Part shown: positions 2,706-47,560 of the stretch, piece by piece | Position numbering within the stretch: the first letter of the stretch is position 1 | Layout of the letters: each line of letters begins with the position of its first letter | Source of the DNA: Planctomycetota bacterium | GTDB lineage: Bacteria; Planctomycetota; Phycisphaerae; WQYP01 | Reading direction: 5' to 3' | Assembly (NCBI GenBank): GCA_021818445.1 | Contig: JAKAEB010000001.1 | Location: forward strand, 16,664 to 80,663 | Length of the DNA: 64,000 nucleotides | Notes under the pieces: model-generated | The model's input: the letters and a program-made list of their open reading frames with translations, nothing else | Database searches by the model: none | What the model was told of the DNA's origin: nothing | Program-made: the position numbers and the translations under genes

Positions 2706-4829
2706 TTATCTTTGGACTGGACGCGACGGCCCGCCGGAAGGGATGGTGCTCTTCCGTACGGCCTTGCTTTTAGCGGCCAGCCATTTCGCCATTTTCTGCT
2801 GGGCCGCCGCTTGGCGCAGATGACCGAGCTTTTTCAGCACTGCCGAGAGTGCCACATGAATCACCGGTGTGTCTGGTGCGACTTTTTCCGCCAATTCCAA
2901 CTGCTGAAGTGCCGCAGCGTATTGACCAAGTGTATAAAGGCACTGCGCATAGGATACGTGTCCGGGCACAAATTGCGGCGACACCTCCACCACCCGCCGG
3001 AAGTAGACGAGGGCCTTGTGTCCGTGCCCGAGTCCCACCAGTGTCATCGCCATGCGGTAATTCGCTTTGGTGTTGTGCGGCTCGATCCGCGTGGTAAGTG
3101 CAAACTGCCCGGCGGCCGCGGGAAGATTTCGCGCCATCAAGTCAAATTTACCAAGCTGATAGTGAATGGCCGCCGAATCCGGCAGCACCTCAACGCCACG
3201 GATTAAATCCTGGTACGCCATCCGCCAATCCTTATGGTCTTCGTACCATTTCACCAGTGCAAGGATCAATGTCGGTTGCTGCGGATCGACCTCCAGCGAG
3301 CGGCGATAATAAGGCATGGCTTTGGCCGGTTCGTGGTAATAGTGGTTATACATATCGCCAAGATCGGTATTCACCGTGGGGTCCTGTTTATCTGACAGCA
3401 GCCAAGCCTTGTGCAAAAGCGCCATACCCTCGTCCGGATGGTGATGTTTAATATCATAAATGGCAACGTTATCCATGGCGGCGAATGCCTGCGGGTTGTA
3501 CTTTAAATTGTGCGTCCAGAGATGTATGGATGGCAAATAGACATCAGCTTGCTTCAAAGTGACGGGTAGCAATGCCAGCACCACACATCCTGCGAGAACC
3601 GCGCCTCCAATATTCTGCCCACGTGTGGAGACCGTTCCCGCCGAGGCCTGCATCTTACGGAGAAGAAACTCGCCACATCCGACAAATAATGCAAATAGGC
3701 CGATGCAGGGGATGTATTGGTAATGGTCGGCCACAAAGGTGTACGTTTCCGTGTAGAAAGAGGCAAACCCCAGCACCGGTGAAATGGTCAGGCCGTAAAA
3801 AGCGATAGCACAAAACGGCCCGCGACCAATGCGGCGTGAAAGCGCCAGCAGCGTCAATGGAACGGCAATAGCCCCAATAATCGCCAGTAAGTCCATGCCG
3901 GAAAAATGTTGAATGTCCCAGCGGTGATAGATCGCCAACAAGGGGTGGGGCCAAAGCAATTTTGCCGGGTAAAACCATAAATCGCGTGCTGCGATAATCA
4001 GGTGCTGGGCGACGGTAAAGTGAAATCGCGATCCGGCCGCATGCACCTTTACGTGCTCAATGTAGATGGTCACCATCCCCATCGCCAAACCGACCGCAAA
4101 CCAGGGTACCAGCGACCACCCTTGATACCGCCGTACCGATCCACGCTTCCACCATGTTATCACCCACAATACCGCTGGTAGCGTGCAGGCGTCGGTCTTG
4201 GCCAGCAAAGCGAGCACAAAGGCTAAGCTGCCGGCGAAAAAATATTTCCACTCGCCCGCTGCCGTTGATTCCGGATCGTCCAGACGGGCAAAGCGTATCC
4301 ACGCCCCGGCGGCGAAGAACACAAAAAATGCTGAAAGCAGGTTTTTCTGCTCCGTCACCCAAGCCACCGTCTCCACCTGAACCGGATGAATGGCAAAAAG
4401 CGCAGCTACCAGCCATGCGCCCGGTACACGCAGCATGCGCAATATCCGCCAAAGAATCAGCGCGTCCACCATTTGCAGAATAATATTGGCGAGGTGATAC
4501 CCCAGTGGGGCAAACCCCCATAACTGATGCTCAATCCAAAATGCGGTAAATACCAGCGGGTAGTATTGAAGTGATTTGGAAGGCTCAAACCAGATGTCCC
4601 ACAATCCATGCGGCGCGGTCATCAACGGGTTGTGCACCACCCAGCCGCCATCGTCCCAGATATATCCCGCCTTGATCAGCGGTAGATATGCAACGACTGT
4701 TAGCAGGGCCAGCAGAGTGCCGGCGATCAGGTCATTTCGTCGGCTGACGGGAGGCAAATCTCGATGGGTCATAGGATGTACTTTCCACGCAATTGCGTCC
4801 GCAAGCAAGTGCACAGGTCGAATTGACAC
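2706..4829 (-). CDS. Multi-pass membrane protein with C-terminal TPR repeats (TMTC/PMT_2-like GT-C fold candidate, DUF1736-type)
   Basis: 707 aa. N-terminal YIWDDGGWVVHNP motif followed by ~10 predicted TM helices. C-terminal ~250 aa of TPR-like repeats. GGAG RBS sits ~10 nt upstream of the 4829 start. Confidence 0.6.
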   Translation of the reverse strand: MSIRPVHLLADAIAWKVHPMTHRDLPPVSRRNDLIAGTLLALLTVVAYLPLIKAGYIWDDGGWVVHNPLMTAPHGLWDIWFEPSKSLQYYPLVFTAFWIEHQLWGFAPLGYHLANIILQMVDALILWRILRMLRVPGAWLVAALFAIHPVQVETVAWVTEQKNLLSAFFVFFAAGAWIRFARLDDPESTAAGEWKYFFAGSLAFVLALLAKTDACTLPAVLWVITWWKRGSVRRYQGWSLVPWFAVGLAMGMVTIYIEHVKVHAAGSRFHFTVAQHLIIAARDLWFYPAKLLWPHPLLAIYHRWDIQHFSGMDLLAIIGAIAVPLTLLALSRRIGRGPFCAIAFYGLTISPVLGFASFYTETYTFVADHYQYIPCIGLFALFVGCGEFLLRKMQASAGTVSTRGQNIGGAVLAGCVVLALLPVTLKQADVYLPSIHLWTHNLKYNPQAFAAMDNVAIYDIKHHHPDEGMALLHKAWLLSDKQDPTVNTDLGDMYNHYYHEPAKAMPYYRRSLEVDPQQPTLILALVKWYEDHKDWRMAYQDLIRGVEVLPDSAAIHYQLGKFDLMARNLPAAAGQFALTTRIEPHNTKANYRMAMTLVGLGHGHKALVYFRRVVEVSPQFVPGHVSYAQCLYTLGQYAAALQQLELAEKVAPDTPVIHVALSAVLKKLGHLRQAAAQQKMAKWLAAKSKAVRKSTIPSGGPSRPVQR

Positions 4830-5224
4830 CCGCGCTTCTCCGAAAGCACGCGCTACCGGACATTACAACAAGGATAGAGCAAAGTTCGCCCTTCCGCACC
4901 GTTGGCTTCTACACCTCAGGAGCCTGTCCGAGGAATAACATGGGCTGCGATGGCATGGATTTTGGCGGGCATCAAGAAGCGGTGACGGGACCGTATCGGG
5001 CGATACGCCGCGGAGGCTTCGCCGCAGAGGCCAGGTGAAACACCCCCCGTCCGGAGGATGCTAAGACCCACTCGGTCGGCGGAGTATCGGTTCGCTGGCA
5101 GTCGGCAAAATCGCTGCGGCGGAAAATCCGAGGCCGCATGAAAATTGCACTGCCAGGGGATATACATATACAGCACGCGTTTGATAAACTGCGTGTTGTT
5201 CTCATCAATAGATATCCATGTAAT

Positions 5225-5461
5225 GACGTGAACTCGGGATAAGAAATTCCGTAGCTTTGTTTATTCAAGTTGTTATATTCACCGTGGCACAGACATTCCT
5301 GTCTGTGACGCTTTATTCTGCGCTAAATCACAGGCAAGAATGCCTGTGTCACCTTGGTTAACGTGAATTCTGGATAGACCTTTTCGACGGCCGCTCGCCG
5401 GCTGGTTGCTTAAAAAATCGCCAGAAATATTTGTTAACCATGACTTCTTATCCCGAACTCA
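5225..5461 (+). mobile_element. MITE-like 237-bp element, copy A (TIR TGAACTCGGGATAAGAAAT / ACTTCTTATCCCGAACTCA)
   Basis: About 90% identical to 46164..46400, same orientation. Imperfect terminal inverted repeats ~19 bp. Internal hairpins CACAGACA-ttcc-TGTCTGTG (5288..5307) and CACAGGCA-agaa-TGCCTGTG (5329..5348). Intergenic position. Confidence 0.55.
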
Positions 5462-5547
5462 GGTATTTAATGGTATACGCCAAGTACCGTACGGCTTGTG
5501 GAGGGGTGCCCAATAAACCTCGGAAGGATGGACTATCTGCCGCCCCG

Positions 5548-6183
5548 TCAATGACTGGTTGGCGATGCCATCTGAGCCAGCTTTCTATAATATTCATTGA
5601 CCAAAGCCCGATACTGTGGCAACGATTGCTTGTGCAGCGCATTAAGAATCATGCTGCGAGCGCGTGGCGGCAGATTGCCCCATTGACGCTTGTTGGAATG
5701 AAAGGGGGAAATTTGATTCGGATGCTGGCCCTGGCCCGGTGTTAAATGCGATTCATGGGCGGCGTGACTTGGAGAGTTGGTCGGGCTGTAAGGCTGCGGG
5801 CCTGTTTGGCTCATGGCCATGGATGAACTTTGCTGCTGATGCGATTTTTTCTTGCCGCTGGATGAACTCGACTGCGATTGCTCCGCTTGCGCGATGAGGG
5901 CATTGAGCGAATGAATAATTTTACGCTGAATGGTCTGTGTGAGAGCACCGGTATGGACAGTGGTGAGCCGTTCGCCACTGGATGCCATGCGTGAAAGCAT
6001 GTGTTCGATTTCAGTTCTCGCCATCGCTTGCTGCAAAGGGCCGCTGTTGGTGGCAGGGTTGGCACCATCGCCGGGCCAAGCCTCCATCTGGGCAATCCAA
6101 GGCGGCAATGTGACGCTGTGAGTAAGCGCACAGGCTGCAGATGTTGATAACGTCAAAACGGCAAGCATGATACTGGCACCCAT
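5548..6183 (-). CDS. Secreted Gln/Ser-rich low-complexity hypothetical protein
   Basis: Track ORF 5548..6261; the likely start is the signal peptide MGASIMLAVLTLSTSAACA. Central QSQSSSSSGKKKSHQQQSSS low-complexity region. Lies immediately downstream of the Bat-like operon. Confidence 0.4.
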   Translation of the reverse strand: MGASIMLAVLTLSTSAACALTHSVTLPPWIAQMEAWPGDGANPATNSGPLQQAMARTEIEHMLSRMASSGERLTTVHTGALTQTIQRKIIHSLNALIAQAEQSQSSSSSGKKKSHQQQSSSMAMSQTGPQPYSPTNSPSHAAHESHLTPGQGQHPNQISPFHSNKRQWGNLPPRARSMILNALHKQSLPQYRALVNEYYRKLAQMASPTSH

Positions 6184-6253
6184 TGCGCCGGAGCGCCGAA
6201 CGCGTGCCAGTGCCACGTGACCCCGGTCACTAAAATCATAGTTCGTCAGCATA

Positions 6254-9200
6254 TCAACCACCAGCCTTCTGCATTGATTTTACCATTTTAACCGCCTGTC
6301 GGTGAATGCGGCGCTGCTGATTTCCCAACATGCGGATTTGCATGCGAATGGCTTTGCGCCCGGTGGCCGAGGTGGTTTTGGCCAACTGGCCATTGAGTTG
6401 GTGCGTCTGCAGATTAATTTGCAGTTGCAAAATACGCAGTAATTTCAGTTGCGCTGCGGGCGGAATAAGGGGCTGTTGACCACCACCTCCACCACCGCCT
6501 CCGCCACTGGATAAATGTTTAATGTGGTTGGTCAGTGCCTCAATGACTGCATCAAGCTGGGAAATGGCCATCTGCTGATCGGCCAACAGGGCACCATCAA
6601 CTTCCGCCTGGTCAAGCCGGGTACGGGCAGCGTGCATTGATTTACCAATGCCGCGGTTCATCCACGCCAGCACCGGGGCCTTAGCACTGATTTTTTGAGT
6701 GATGGCGTCCAGCCGGTGGATCAATTGCGTTTCGCCTTTGGATTCGCCAGCAATTTGCAAAATCTGCGGTCGCGTCGGCGGATGGCCCGCCGGTATTTCC
6801 GATTGAAGTTTTTTGGAAAGGCCGTACATAACGTTCTGCTGATGGCGGATTTTGAGATACATGGCCTTGAGTCCTGACAGCGTCTGCATCTGCTGCTTGG
6901 CCCGGTCTTTATTCAATAATTTTTGTAAAATTGCCACCGCCCGTTTCAGCCAACCGATGGCCTGTGATTGATGCGGCACGGCCAGCGGTTGATTGGCATT
7001 TTCCATCTGGCCGGTGGCTCGCCCCATCTGGTGCGATGCCGCCATTAAAAAGGCATGGGCATAACCCGACGGATCGGCCCGGCGGCTTTTGCCAGCCAGT
7101 TCCGCTGCTGTGAGTTCAAATTGCGATTGCCGGTTTGCAAGCGGTGCGAGTGTCAATCGTGATGCGTTGGGCGGCTCGGCCCCCGTTGCCGCTGCCAGAA
7201 GTTTTTGATCGCGCAACAGTAATTTTACCTGCGATAATAAACTTTTAAGACGGCTGATCTGCCGCGATAGCGATCGCTTGGCCTCTTTATTGAGTTCATG
7301 AAGCATCTTTTTGAGCCCCTTGGCTGCCTGCTTCTGATTAACCGAGGCCGATTGAAGATGATTCTGCTCCGCGCTGCTGGATGCCTGTCCCATCGCACCG
7401 GGAACGGAAAACTGGGCAGACATCCGGGCCGCCGCCCTAAGAGCCGAAGCCATGTGCGGGTTGGATTTGGCCATCTGTGTCGCCGCACGGTTCAGGCGGT
7501 TGGCCAGTTGGGCCGCTCGGGATGCCAGCGCCTTTTGTGCGGCCGCAAGTGCTTGAAGCTTCTGTTGCAGCGCCTTTGACAGCTTTGAAAACGGCTTGCC
7601 CAGCGTTTGTTTGGCCACCTCACGTAGCTGCCGCTCCAACGCTTCCTGCTGAGCCAGCAGCCGGGCCGTGGCGTGCCGCAAAGCGGCAAATTCACCCGTT
7701 GCCCCCAGTTGTGCCACCAGTGCCTTCATGCGGCGAATAGCTTCGGTTTGCCGACCGGCGGCCGAACCGAGTGGCTTGCTGGCCTTTGGTGTCTGACCGG
7801 CTTTTACGTCGCGATTGGCCTGCGACAGGTGGCTTTGCGCCCGGGGCATTACATGTCGGCCAATTCTCGTCATTACCCGTCGGGCGTTGCCGATGGTTTG
7901 GCCGATGGATCGCTTGGTAAGGTTATTGCGGCGGGCAATCGCGGATAGCTTTTCAAGTTCGCGGGCGATGGCCTGGGCGCTAAGCGCGTCACGATTTTGC
8001 CGGTGTGGAGACTCGTCAAGAAGCAACTTTTGCGACGCTGTCAGGGCATGAGCAGTCTGGATCGCCCGCTGGAGCAACTGCGTCTGGTCACGAACAGCAC
8101 GCTGGTGTTTGATGAGCGACTCAATCGAGTGCCGCACCGCCCGCAGTGACCGTTGTAATTGCTGCTGAATCTGCGCCGGACTCAAAATGCTGATAACCAG
8201 CCGGGGTGAATTGACTGCGGGATGTTGGTGGGGGGGCGTTGGGCTGGAGTAGTTATCCCGCACCTGCGCCATGAGATCGATTTGATCGCCCGCCTTGAGA
8301 TGCATGGATTGCGGCGTCCACCGTACAACCGCCTTACCAACTTGCTGATGGGTAAGCGAACTGTAACGCAGCGATTGCCACGCTGCGGTTTGGCGGTACG
8401 ACGGCTTAGTCTTGCCGCCGCGGCCCCGTTGCACACCCACAACAGATAGCGCGGTCAGACCAAGGTCGTCCGAGGCGCGAATATGCAGATGGATATGCGC
8501 GTCGGGAGTTAAATCCAGTGCATAGCGCGGATGGGTAATAGCGACCTGCGGCAGGGCATCGGGCACCACTATCACTCTAAAGCGCCCGCCGCGCTGGCTA
8601 CTTAAATCGTGCTTATCGGTTACCTGTAACCGTCCGTTGAACGACGCCTGCGGTCGGTACACGATAATCACCTGATGCGATGCAGCGCCGGTGGCCGCCT
8701 TGGATGTGATGATGTGAACCGGGGCTGGGCCACCAACCACCTGGGTACCTGCAACTGCCTGATTGCTCGCCGCTGTGATCGTGACGGTTGATCCGCGGAT
8801 AACCTGCGCCCGGTGCGAGAGCAGATTTATCTGGTAACTCGGTGCCCCGTGGGCGTAGGGGGGAGGAGAAATGGTCGCCAGAACCGAGAGAATCCGCGGC
8901 CGCGGCAGAACGGTTATAGTTGTCCACGGGTTGCGGTCGTCATCGCCTGCTCTGACGCGCAGCATCAATGTGCCGGATTGCGGCAGGACCACTTTTTCAT
9001 ATTCGCGTCCCTTTGCCTTCCCTTGCCATGTCATTAATTGTGATTGGCGACCGGCATGCGCCGATTTGATTTCCAGCCAGACACGGAGGTCTTGGCTGAA
9101 GCCCCGGCTGACGCGTGCCGTGACGGTGAACGGACTGCCGCTCGGCAGAATTTTCGGTGGACCGTTTTTGCCCCAGGCAAGACGGACTAAAACGTGCAGT

Positions 9201-45234: not shown

Positions 45235-45322
45235 GGCCAGTCATATTCGCCGCGTGCCATGATGGGCTGTTCCCGCCTTTGCCTGTGCTATAATGCTGAC
45301 CGAGGCGTTTATCCCGGACGAT

Positions 45323-46084
45323 ATGGAGCTCATCGTGGATGAAAAACTGAAAAATAAAACAGCCATAATCACTGGTGCCAGCAGTGGAATCGGGCGCGCC
45401 GCCGGTATGCAACTCGCCCGGCATGGCGCGACGGTAGTGCTTGTGGCGCGTCGTGAAAAACAATTGCAGGCGGTCGCCGGGGAAATTAAAGCGTTCGGTG
45501 GAAACTCCATCGTCGTGGTAGCCGATATGTCGCGGTCTGAAGAAATTGATCGGTGCCTATCCATATGCCGGGAAAGAACCGGAAGGCTGGATATTGCCGT
45601 CGTCAATGCGGGCCGAGGTTTAGCCGGTGGACTCCTGTCCAGTGACGAAAGTCAGTGGGAGGAGATGTACAAGCTCAATGTACTATCGGCGGCCCGGCTT
45701 ATGCGTCGTTGTGGGGCGTGGATGCTTGAACGCGGCAGTGGCGATATTGTGGTGCTTGGGTCGGTCTCCGGTCACCATATTTCTCCGTTCAGCGGCTTTT
45801 ATGGCTCAAGCAAATGGGCACTGGCGTCTCTGGCGGAGGCATTTCGTCGCGAGGTGGCCTCGAAGGGGATTCGCGTTTCCACCATCAAACCGGGCGTAGT
45901 GGAATCAGAATTTCAGGCCGTTGCCGGGTATGACCGGGATAATTTTTACAAAACCATCGAAAAGTATGGAACGCTTCTCACGCCTGAAGATGTTGCCGAT
46001 GCAATCGCTTATGTCGTCACGCGCCCGGCCCATGTCCTGATTAACGATCTTATTATTCGGCCCATCGGGCAAGACTATCCGTAG
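45323..46084 (+). CDS. SDR family oxidoreductase
   Basis: TGASSGIGRAAG NAD(P)-binding motif. NAG, SGxxxSK and YGSSK catalytic tetrad elements. Confidence 0.8.
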   Translation: MELIVDEKLKNKTAIITGASSGIGRAAGMQLARHGATVVLVARREKQLQAVAGEIKAFGGNSIVVVADMSRSEEIDRCLSICRERTGRLDIAVVNAGRGLAGGLLSSDESQWEEMYKLNVLSAARLMRRCGAWMLERGSGDIVVLGSVSGHHISPFSGFYGSSKWALASLAEAFRREVASKGIRVSTIKPGVVESEFQAVAGYDRDNFYKTIEKYGTLLTPEDVADAIAYVVTRPAHVLINDLIIRPIGQDYP

Positions 46085-46163
46085 CCGAAAACCTGTTCCG
46101 GCGCAAGGCCACTTGCACATACCGACCGAGATTACTTTTGCGTAGCAGAGTTTGGTTTATCGG

Positions 46164-46400
46164 GACGTGAATTCGGGATTAGGAATTCCGTAGCTCTGTT
46201 TATCCAAGTTGCTATGTTCATCGTGGCACAGACATTCCTGTCTGTGCCGCTGTATTCCGGGCTAAATCACAGGCAAGAATGCCTGTGTCACCTTGGTTAG
46301 CGTGAATTCCGGATAAGCCCTTTCGCCGGCCGCTCGACGGCTGATTGCTTGAAACATCGCCAGAAACATTTGTTAACCATGACTTCTTATCCCGAAATCA
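46164..46400 (+). mobile_element. MITE-like 237-bp element, copy B
   Basis: Aligns end-to-end with 5225..5461 at ~90% identity. Both hairpins are conserved: cacagacattcctgtctgtg and cacaggcaagaatgcctgtg. TIRs are tgaattcgggattaggaat and acttcttatcccgaaatca. Lies between convergent genes. Confidence 0.55.
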
Positions 46401-46404
46401 CTTT

Positions 46405-47343
46405 CTATCGGGGGATGTACCCGCGCTGCCGCAGCCACTGAACACACGCCGCTGGCCATTGCACAGATGCTGTTCCCGGTACACCCAGCCCGAAGCCATG
46501 TTTTCCTGTCGCATACACATGTAATACCGCAGGGATGTGTTCACGTTTAAGCGCACGATAAAAACTGAAGCTGTTTTCCAGCGGGACGATGGGATCATTA
46601 CGTGCCACGCAAATAAATGCGGGTGGTGTCAGTTTGGTCACCATTAAATTGGCCGAAAAGTATTTCTCCACTCCCAGCGGACAATGCTCGCCCAGCAGCG
46701 CATTATGCGATCCCGGATGTGTAATACCCGGTATCATGGAAATAACTGGATAGCCAAGAATAAGAAAATCTGGGCGTGTGCTCAAGCGATCAATGCGGCG
46801 CGGGGCGTTCGGGTTGCCCGGCAAAAAAAGCGTGCCCGCCATTGCCGCCACATGGCCGCCGGCCGAAAATCCCGCCACTCCAACATCATTGGGATTGATG
46901 TGCCATGCGTGGGCATTGGCACGCACAATCTGCACAGCCCGGCGCACATCCTGCAAAGGCCACGGCACACCACTCGGTGGCAGCTTGCCATTGGGCAAGC
47001 GATAATTAAGTACAAAGGCCGACACACCCAGTTTGTTAAGCCATTGGGCAATGGCATATCCTTCGTGATGAACTGCCTCGTAAACGTACCCACCGCCCGG
47101 GCAGATCACCACCGCACAACCATTGGCGTGTTGACGGCCGACCAGGTATTCGGTCAGGGTGGGCCATTTATGCAACTTCCACGCGCGCTGATCCATCGGC
47201 ACTTTAAGGTGCGGCCAAACTGGAATGACCTTGGCATCAGGTTTGCGACGGGGGGCAAACCACGCGGGCATTTTCGCCACGCCGCTGGTGGCTATTCCAC
47301 CAATCACAAATGCCGCGAGGATGAAATGTGACAGCTCTTTCAT
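46405..47343 (-). CDS. Secreted alpha/beta hydrolase (esterase/lipase-type, Ser-His-Asp)
   Basis: Signal peptide MKELSHFILAAFVIGGIATSGVA. HGGG-like ICPGGGY oxyanion motif. Nucleophile elbow GFSAGGH. Confidence 0.7.
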   Translation of the reverse strand: MKELSHFILAAFVIGGIATSGVAKMPAWFAPRRKPDAKVIPVWPHLKVPMDQRAWKLHKWPTLTEYLVGRQHANGCAVVICPGGGYVYEAVHHEGYAIAQWLNKLGVSAFVLNYRLPNGKLPPSGVPWPLQDVRRAVQIVRANAHAWHINPNDVGVAGFSAGGHVAAMAGTLFLPGNPNAPRRIDRLSTRPDFLILGYPVISMIPGITHPGSHNALLGEHCPLGVEKYFSANLMVTKLTPPAFICVARNDPIVPLENSFSFYRALKREHIPAVLHVYATGKHGFGLGVPGTASVQWPAACVQWLRQRGYIPR

Positions 47344-47560
47344 GGATAATCCCTTTCGGTTCGTAAGGTATCGCCTCCTCATCAACTTATGGCCAATTCC
47401 CTTCCATGTAAAGCGGCCTCCCGCCAATAAATTATGTCCATTCAAAACTTACTCAGAGTGGCCGTAGAGCAGCTTTATCGCCCCCTTTAAAAATCCCGGC
47501 ACAATTTCACTTTTACGCCGAAAATGCTATAATCTCGAGTAGTTTTGAAAGGAGTAATAT

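Follow-up and report, generated by a model that had tools for sequence, protein, structure and literature searches.

A probable IS982-derived MITE with a REP doublet, inserted at a hydrolase stop codon in an uncultured member of the Phycisphaerae

One copy of a repeated element fills most of the 320-bp spacer (46085-46404) that separates convergent SDR and alpha/beta hydrolase genes in an uncultured bacterium of the Phycisphaerae (Planctomycetota). We consider it very probable that this element is an IS982-derived MITE that carries a REP doublet and that was inserted at the hydrolase stop codon. The stretch of DNA that was analysed, referred to here as the window, is 64,000 nucleotides long and contains two copies of the element, copy A and copy B, the latter being the one in the spacer (Table 1). 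The element has precise ends, shares its terminal inverted repeats (TIRs) with bona fide IS982 insertion sequences, is bounded by target duplications and is absent from the orthologous loci of relatives. Matching TIRs, a length below about 300 bp without a transposase ORF, target duplications, and presence in some but not other genomes at orthologous sites are among the features that define an IS982 MITE, and each of these was found. An earlier note, made from the letters of the window, had called the element MITE-like, and this is borne out: it is non-autonomous, and it is assigned to IS982 by its TIR sequence, its AC...GT termini, its target duplications of variable length and its lack of a transposase ORF.

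Table 1. Positions of the two copies, their parts and neighbours, and of RAYT-type genes beside related REPs (window coordinates unless a MAG locus is named)
Feature	Position	Strand	Basis or remark
adh_short SDR gene	45293-46084	+	Convergent partner of the spacer
Alpha/beta hydrolase gene, BD-FAE/Abhydrolase_3 type	46405-47445	-	Other convergent partner of the spacer
Hydrolase stop codon TAG	46405-46407	-	TA from the target plus terminal G of the MITE
Copy B, probable 241-bp IS982-family-derived non-autonomous MITE	46165-46405	+	Homology to copy A; TIR logo of ~70 metagenome elements; 7-bp direct repeat at the bounds
Copy B, left target-site duplication TATCGGG	46158-46164		Abuts the AC terminus exactly; chance 8e-4 at these offsets
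Copy B, right target-site duplication TATCGGG	46406-46412		Overlaps the last codons and stop of the hydrolase gene
Copy B, left TIR ACGTGAATTCGGGATTAG	46165-46182	+	16/18 against family consensus ACGTGAGTTCGGGATAAG, counted against the TIR logo
Copy B, right TIR CTTATCCCGAAATCACTT(TC)	46386-46405	+	Inverted-repeat pair; 16/18 against consensus CTTATCCCGAACTCACGT, counted against the TIR logo
Copy B, internal third copy of the left TIR, GCGTGAATTCCGGATAAG	about 46300-46317	+	Direct-repeat and inverted-repeat detection; 135 bp inside the element
Copy B, REP 1: GTGG tag, then hairpin CACAGACA-TTCC-TGTCTGTG	46223-46246	+	Member of the cross-phylum REP family
Copy B, REP 2, inverted: hairpin CACAGGCA-AGAA-TGCCTGTG, then TCAC (minus strand GTGA)	46268-46291	-	Exact 20-mer in >117 MAG loci
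Copy A, MITE	5226-5467	+	Homology to copy B; identical in 6 conspecific contigs
Copy A, candidate target-site duplication TAATG, left	5221-5225		Chance 8e-3
Copy A, candidate target-site duplication TAATG, right	5468-5472		Chance 8e-3
Copy A, REP hairpins	5284-5307 and 5329-5352
Copy A, internal TIR	5361-5378
Neighbour of copy A, 237-aa gene (3' end)	5548-6261	-
Neighbour of copy A, TPR gene (start)	2706-4829	-
RAYT-type gene, L053	5865-6602		Beside REPs
RAYT-type gene, L058	4228-5477		Beside REPs
RAYT-type gene, L098	2-703		Beside REPs
RAYT-type gene, L095	2510-4909		Beside REPs
RAYT-type gene, L063	3894-8000		Beside REPs

The location given in the earlier note, a MITE-like copy in the gap between the convergent 3' ends of an SDR and an esterase gene, is confirmed. 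Its extent there, 46164 to 46400, is correct for the block of homology between the two copies but not for the ends of the element, which lie at 46165 and 46405 and were set by comparison with the wider TIR family rather than by homology with copy A. The homology block appears to stop at 46400 because the last 5-6 nt have diverged between the copies. When copy B and one TATCGGG are deleted in silico, the hydrolase gene ends in ...CCC CGA TAA, with TAA at the ancestral stop codon position. The hydrolase C-terminus (...RGYIPR*) aligns end to end with that of the ortholog in the relative L130 (...MGFINR*) and stops at the same codon. That the restored stop falls at the codon used by this ortholog gives independent support for the boundaries of copy B, and the restored stop together with the aligned C-termini shows that the hydrolase protein was left unaltered by the insertion.

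A BLAST search of the spacer against the window returned a single other match, 5225-5461 aligned with 46164-46400 (E = 6e-90), the 237 aligned bp being 89.9% identical and free of indels, in agreement with the earlier statement that the window holds a second copy. On both sides of each copy the similarity breaks off abruptly, and the flanks are unrelated. TAATG at copy A and TATCGGG at copy B both abut the left AC terminus of their own copy, and at the right end of both the direct repeat begins 2-3 nt past the consensus TIR end (3 nt in copy A), so that the right boundary of the window copies is less clean than in most members of the IS982-TIR family. The two copies differ by 10%, which argues against recent activity.

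Comparison of the orthologous SDR/hydrolase spacers, the check proposed in the earlier note, found the element only in conspecifics. Two relatives, L130 and L131, have an SDR of 81% amino acid identity and the same convergent hydrolase, separated by a 68-nt spacer without the element; the other relatives have different neighbours and no element, and neither TIR nor REP was found in ~80 kb from relatives. It is therefore not the case that all relatives carry the same sequence, which the earlier note had named as the sign of an ancient fixed intergenic region. Copy B occurs only in conspecific contigs, and in all contigs that span the two sites copies A and B are each 100% identical across samples; the element is fixed in the sampled population. 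For copy A, a sister species whose flanking genes are ~86% identical at the nucleotide level (L219, 2547-2928) has an unrelated, partly AT-rich sequence of 382 nt in place of the MITE interval (window 5151-5514), and therefore no clean empty site can be defined. An apparent split of the SDR ortholog into genes of 97 and 161 aa in GCA_021804985.1 (L224, 2381-2411) is a scaffold gap of Ns and not an insertion. To the right of the window, downstream of a SapC-like gene, one conspecific contig has a 161-aa ORF (L228, 15037-15832) where another has, on the opposite strand, a 241-aa HhH-GPD glycosylase (L229, 8611-9406), which is a strain-level indel or replacement.

Neither an IS982 transposase nor a RAYT was found in the window or its ~18 kb of added flank (~82 kb in all), and the conspecific loci contain no IS982 transposase. 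The added flank holds no third copy of the element, leaving two copies in ~82 kb. As expected for a repeat, several independent contigs of short-read (Logan) assemblies, five at copy B (L123-L127) and two at copy A (L215-L216), break off in REP hairpin 2, at element positions 117-127. Most of these breaks (117, 119) are not explained by the sharing of sequence between copies A and B, which, on our assumption that the assemblies were made with k = 31, would point to further copies, either in the genome or in the sample.

The outer ends of copy B are IS982-family TIRs (ACGTGAAYTCGGGATWAG / CTTATCCCGAAMTCA), which were also delimited as the inverted repeats GTGAATTCGGGATTAG and CTTATCCCGAAATCAC. 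Inside the element the left TIR occurs a third time, and this copy bounds, together with the right TIR, a nested mini-element of ~106 bp (46300-46405). The two internal hairpins of the earlier note are present as perfect hairpins in the left half of copy B, hairpin 1 at 46225-46248 (GGCACAGACA-TTCC-TGTCTGTGCC) and hairpin 2 at 46268-46287. Each is the inverted copy of the other, with arms of 25 nt that are 84% complementary in copy A, and with their tags they can be written as the units GTGG-CACAGACATTCCTGTCTGTG and CACAGGCAAGAATGCCTGTG-TCAC (= GTGA). These form a tag-outward, REPIN-like doublet with a 21-nt spacer. The interior of the element would thus be a mosaic of this doublet and of the third left TIR with the nested unit that it defines. 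A degenerate right TIR at element positions 34-50 was considered and is too weak to claim. The folding energies of both copies lie well below those of shuffled sequences, at -82.3 kcal/mol (z = -4.4) and -86.7 kcal/mol (z = -7.3), with the whole element folding as one long hairpin. ORFs in the element reach at most 35 aa, apart from one of 59 aa that runs into the flank, and gene callers placed no gene inside it at any of 18 loci.

The assignment to IS982 draws on a scan of JGI metagenomes with the inner TIR cores only (TCGGGATWAG-N186-216-TTCTTATCCCGAA), which gave 73 loci against a rough estimate of about one by chance. Approximately 70 unique elements of 230-260 bp, in ~25 subfamilies with unrelated interiors, share 9-10 further outward bases that were absent from the search pattern, TAAC[C/G]TGAGT on the left and CTCA[G/C]GTTA on the right. 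The window copies match in these outward bases too (gACGTGAAt... and, at the other end, ...aTCACtT and ...CTCAGGT), and their TIRs agree with the consensus of the ~70 elements at 16-18 of 18 positions. In 10-14 elements for each repeat length, direct repeats of 5-8 nt end right before ACCTGAG and resume right after CTCAGGT, compared with 0-1 elements in a permuted control. Direct repeats that abut these motifs imply AC...GT termini and target duplications of variable length. In the ISfinder description, IS982 is the family with 'AC' ends and target duplications of 3-9 bp. The TA duplication of IS630-type elements is ruled out, the repeats being 5-8 nt long, and a CRISPR or attC identity was rejected as there is neither an array nor an R'/R'' structure.

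The same TIRs are found around transposase genes. In the metagenome contig L136 they enclose a truncated ORF that scores 139.4 bits on NCBIfam transpos_IS982 (cutoff 130), and in L150 a C-terminal fragment of IS982 follows a TIR. On plasmids of Segatella copri and Leptospira noguchii, genes annotated by RefSeq as IS982 family transposases are flanked on both sides by repeats of the ACCTCAGTTCGGGATAAG / ACGTGAGTTCGGCGTAAG type, while for an annotated IS982 transposase of Nostoc flagelliforme the right-hand repeat only was detected. The signature AC[C/G]TGAGTTCGGGATAAG, also written AC[CG]TGARYTCNGGATWAG, picks up IS982-derived MITEs in metagenomes. A metagenome scan with the right-end 21-mer of the element (ACCATGACTTCTTATCCCGAA) gave 0 matches, and the window's own subfamily therefore appears to be absent from the JGI set; the element likewise had no match in E. 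coli genomes (megablast) or in plasmids (blastn). One metagenome subfamily (L145, L147, L150, L159, L187, L195, L196, L173) shares the nested plan of the window element: an additional left TIR stands in the interior, 60-80 nt before the right TIR. L159 contains a near-empty unit, in which only 5 nt separate a left TIR from the right TIR behind it. Metagenome elements of the nested plan are miniature composites of two MITE units around cargo.

The hairpins have relatives of their own. The 20-mer of hairpin 2 (CACAGGCAAGAATGCCTGTG) is exact at 46268-46287 and 5329-5348 of the window and, among the matches listed, at more than 117 MAG loci (L001-L117) from at least eight phyla. The taxa listed are Acidobacteriota, Planctomycetota (including Phycisphaerae and Tepidisphaerales), Verrucomicrobiota and Lentisphaeria, Ignavibacteria, Kapaibacterium, Chlorobi, Bacteroidota, Aquificaceae, Caldisericia and Eisenbacteria; the window's own lineage is not among the listed matches of this genome contig scan. 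REP families are usually described as lineage-specific, and the breadth of this 20-mer across phyla is unusual. At the loci listed the tags are GTGG in 113, GTAG in 93, GTAA in 13 and GTGA in 6 of 240 hairpins (206/240 for GTGG and GTAG), and the dominant arrangement is the tag-outward doublet, with at least 39 pairs spaced 8-52 nt apart, a range within which the 21-nt spacer of the window doublet falls. Resemblance between these loci and the element is confined to element positions ~57-131, at 72-80% identity, and the sequence outside this part is private to the element. Di Nocera et al. (2013, PMC3733652) defined GTAG-type REPs and 'HH' dimers, a definition that the 20-mer loci fit, and recorded repeats of this type also in the PVC superphylum, where GTGG is the predominant tag in Opitutus. 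With a short palindrome, a GTAG-like tag and an inverted doublet, the window hairpins belong, by sequence and arrangement, to a GTRG-tagged REP family. No free REPs were found in ~82 kb of genome, all four REP hairpins lying inside the two MITE copies, and a search of the literature with the hairpin sequences as words gave no match.

With E. coli RayT (NC_000913) as probe, IS200-like Y1 transposase ORFs were found directly beside REPs in six loci, and four ORFs in three of these loci (L053, L058 and L098) pass the Pfam Y1_Tnp gathering score, with REPs within ~200 nt. The RAYT-type genes form at least two lineages, with 76% and 57% identity within Acidobacteriota, and are 28-37% identical between lineages or phyla although the REP sequence is the same. 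An approximate IS200 TnpA sequence gave no match in this search, and all-against-all clustering of the ORFs near REP loci singled out no transposase at first. A further candidate RAYT locus, L006, where REPs flank a 2-kb segment, was dropped, the segment holding a glycogen-debranching-like gene. Locus L058 carries two different RAYT-type genes in tandem. In a Lentisphaera MAG (L063, 3894-8000) and an Ignavibacteria MAG (L095, 2510-4909) a RAYT-like domain lies inside stop-free frames of 1369 and 800 aa that are 60% identical and in which the REP arrays are read through in frame; the long frame represents either a fused protein or a stretch of REPs left open by chance.

Given these features, we propose that an IS982-family DDE transposase encoded elsewhere would bind the 18-20-bp TIRs, which begin with AC and end with GT, would excise or copy the element, and on inserting it would duplicate a short target stretch whose length varies. 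Mobilisation would then have taken place in trans. Copy B would have landed on the hydrolase stop codon and duplicated TATCGGG after the split from the nearest sampled relatives, and the REP doublet was presumably acquired by an ancestral copy of the element as passenger DNA.

A different account would make the element a structured 3' element selected by the host, as a terminator, mRNA stabiliser or insulator, that stands in two places by function and not by mobility. The earlier note suggested a possible role as terminator or insulator and took the differences between copies, which it described as retaining the complementarity of both hairpins, as consistent with selection on structure. The element is strongly structured, it lies at 3' ends in both loci and its REP hairpins are less diverged than the rest, and REPs elsewhere are reported to stabilise upstream mRNA (Di Nocera et al. 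2013, PMC3733652). However, complementarity is retained in only a trivial sense: the 24 differences between copies A and B all lie outside the 8-bp stems and the loops, so that the cores are invariant, and at element position 84, which is C in B and A in A, the change removes a G-C pair from the extended 12-bp stem of hairpin 1 and weakens that hairpin in copy A. There is no compensatory double change between the copies anywhere in the element. The REP units differ at 1/52 positions and the rest of the element at 23/185, but this lower divergence is not covariation, and selection on structure does not follow from the differences between the copies. Nor does the sequence look like a canonical terminator: between 45900 and 46700 there are 0 sites on either strand where a G+C-rich hairpin is followed by a T-run, no promoter-like site is seen in the element region, and Rfam 15 finds no family in the whole window at gathering score, with sub-threshold matches to miRNA precursors only (E = 0.003 and 0.23), which are noise. 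Furthermore, relatives with the same gene pair do with a 68-nt spacer, and the TIRs and target duplications point to transposition. We therefore regard host selection as a highly improbable origin of the element. An effect on the 3' ends of the SDR and hydrolase transcripts is possible by analogy with the REP literature, as is a secondary, exapted effect of the element; any barrier that the hairpins form at the 3' ends of the two flanking transcripts would be incidental.

Another reading takes the whole 241-bp unit for a large element of REPIN type that a RAYT or another Y1 (IS200-like) transposase moves in single-stranded form, in which case the outer repeats would be the base of a hairpin and not binding sites for a DDE transposase. 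The core does hold a REP doublet with the outward tags typical of a RAYT-associated family, the whole element folds as a long hairpin (with the z scores given above), and RAYT-like genes with long TIRs ('TIRYT') and REP dimers within longer palindromes have been described (Di Nocera et al. 2013, PMC3733652). The outer repeats, however, are specifically those of IS982, common to IS982 copies that bear a transposase, and ~25 sister subfamilies share them, mostly without REPs, whereas the cross-phylum REP loci match only the part of the element that holds the doublet. Direct repeats flank the element, and Y1 transposition is not known to make any. Taking these points together we think movement by a Y1 transposase very unlikely. 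Least probable to us is an origin of the pair without transposition, through segmental duplication or gene conversion of intergenic DNA. In its favour, only two copies are seen directly, and they are 10% diverged, but their boundaries are IS982 TIR termini with different flanking duplications, there is no flanking homology at all, and the contig breaks at 117-119 need more than the sequence common to A and B to account for them. An IS982-derived MITE, mobilised through its TIRs, remains our preferred reading.

The hybrid make-up of this MITE may not be confined to the window. Other IS982-TIR subfamilies in the metagenomes have GTAG/CTAC-tagged hairpins of their own, of unrelated sequence (L139/L153/L157/L181/L190/L193/L197; L144/L152/L156/L186/L203; L148/L160/L204), for example GTAGCCCACAGCGCAAGCTGTGGG...CCCACAGCTTGCGCTGTGGGCTAC and GTAGGGTGGAATAGCGTAGCGTATTCCACC...CTAC, and the L139 and L144 groups have them as tag-outward doublets. 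That at least three further subfamilies carry REP-like hairpins suggests that REP cargo recurs in IS982-type shells. From the window element and these three unrelated subfamilies we raise, tentatively and with more doubt than confidence, the general idea that IS982-type TIR shells recurrently acquire GTAG-tagged REP doublets. REPINs are normally tied to a single-copy RAYT and inherited vertically. If the idea were true, there would be a hybrid class of miniature element in which REPINs hitch-hike on MITEs mobilised by a DDE transposase, REPINs could spread or persist in genomes that have no RAYT, and this might help to explain how the same 20-mer REP comes to be in many phyla despite adjacent RAYTs that are only ~28-37% identical. 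The association of REP and MITE is thus a candidate route for a spread of REPs that is independent of RAYTs, the doublet being copied as cargo of a DDE-type element. At the scale of this genome, the insertion would explain the 'empty' 320-bp spacer and the recurrent contig breaks in assemblies of the Phycisphaerae species, and it provides a case of a MITE inserted into a stop codon without change to the protein. For annotators, the TIR signature AC[C/G]TGAGTTCGGGATAAG offers a tool for a large and mostly unannotated superfamily of IS982-derived MITEs.

Several known systems resemble the element in part. IS982 insertion sequences (Segatella copri, Leptospira noguchii, Nostoc flagelliforme and the truncated copy in L136) have, as the window element does, the TIR AC[C/G]T[G/C]AGTTCGG(G/C)(A/G)TAAG with AC...GT termini. 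They are ~1 kb long and contain a transposase, whereas the window element is ~240 bp long, has no transposase ORF and has an interior unrelated to IS982 coding sequence. Like the window element, the MITE-like intergenic repeats known as ERIC/IRU in enterobacteria and as Correia elements in Neisseria, which lie at 3' ends, are short, bounded by TIRs and highly structured, and they are often co-transcribed at gene ends; they have no sequence relationship to it, however, and differ in their TIRs and in parent IS family. A precedent for an IS982-derived MITE of ~240 bp is MITECca01, derived from the IS982 member ISCca4 in the Cardinium of Oedothorax gibbosus (Halter et al. 2022, PMC9769881), which by its description is likewise ~240 bp long, without transposase, multi-copy and bounded by IS982-like inverted repeats. 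Its host belongs to the Bacteroidota rather than the Planctomycetota, its parent IS is intact in the same genome whereas none was found for the window element, and no REP cargo is reported for it, whereas the window element carries a REP doublet.

With GTAG-tagged REPs and REPINs that are associated with RAYTs (Nunvar 2010; Bertels & Rainey 2011; Di Nocera et al. 2013, PMC3733652), the window REPs share an 8-bp stem, a 4-nt loop and an end tag of GTRG type. The doublet is like REPINs in being inverted with the tags outward ('HH'), 21 nt apart, and the same REP stands beside Y1_Tnp genes elsewhere. Unlike REPs and REPINs, those of the window are confined to the two copies of the MITE; one of the tags reads GTGA, no RAYT accompanies them in the window or its added flank, and the unit that has been duplicated is the whole 241 bp. 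A parallel in overall plan is offered by GTAG-15 of Anabaena variabilis and CGTC-1 of Halothiobacillus neapolitanus (Di Nocera et al. 2013), in which a REP doublet regularly lies inside a longer inverted-repeat shell as it does here, although the published shell consensuses differ from the IS982 TIR and the shells are without assignment to an IS family. The element belongs to known kinds, then; it is an ordinary piece of selfish DNA whose hybrid make-up is unusual, and nothing about it overturns current views.
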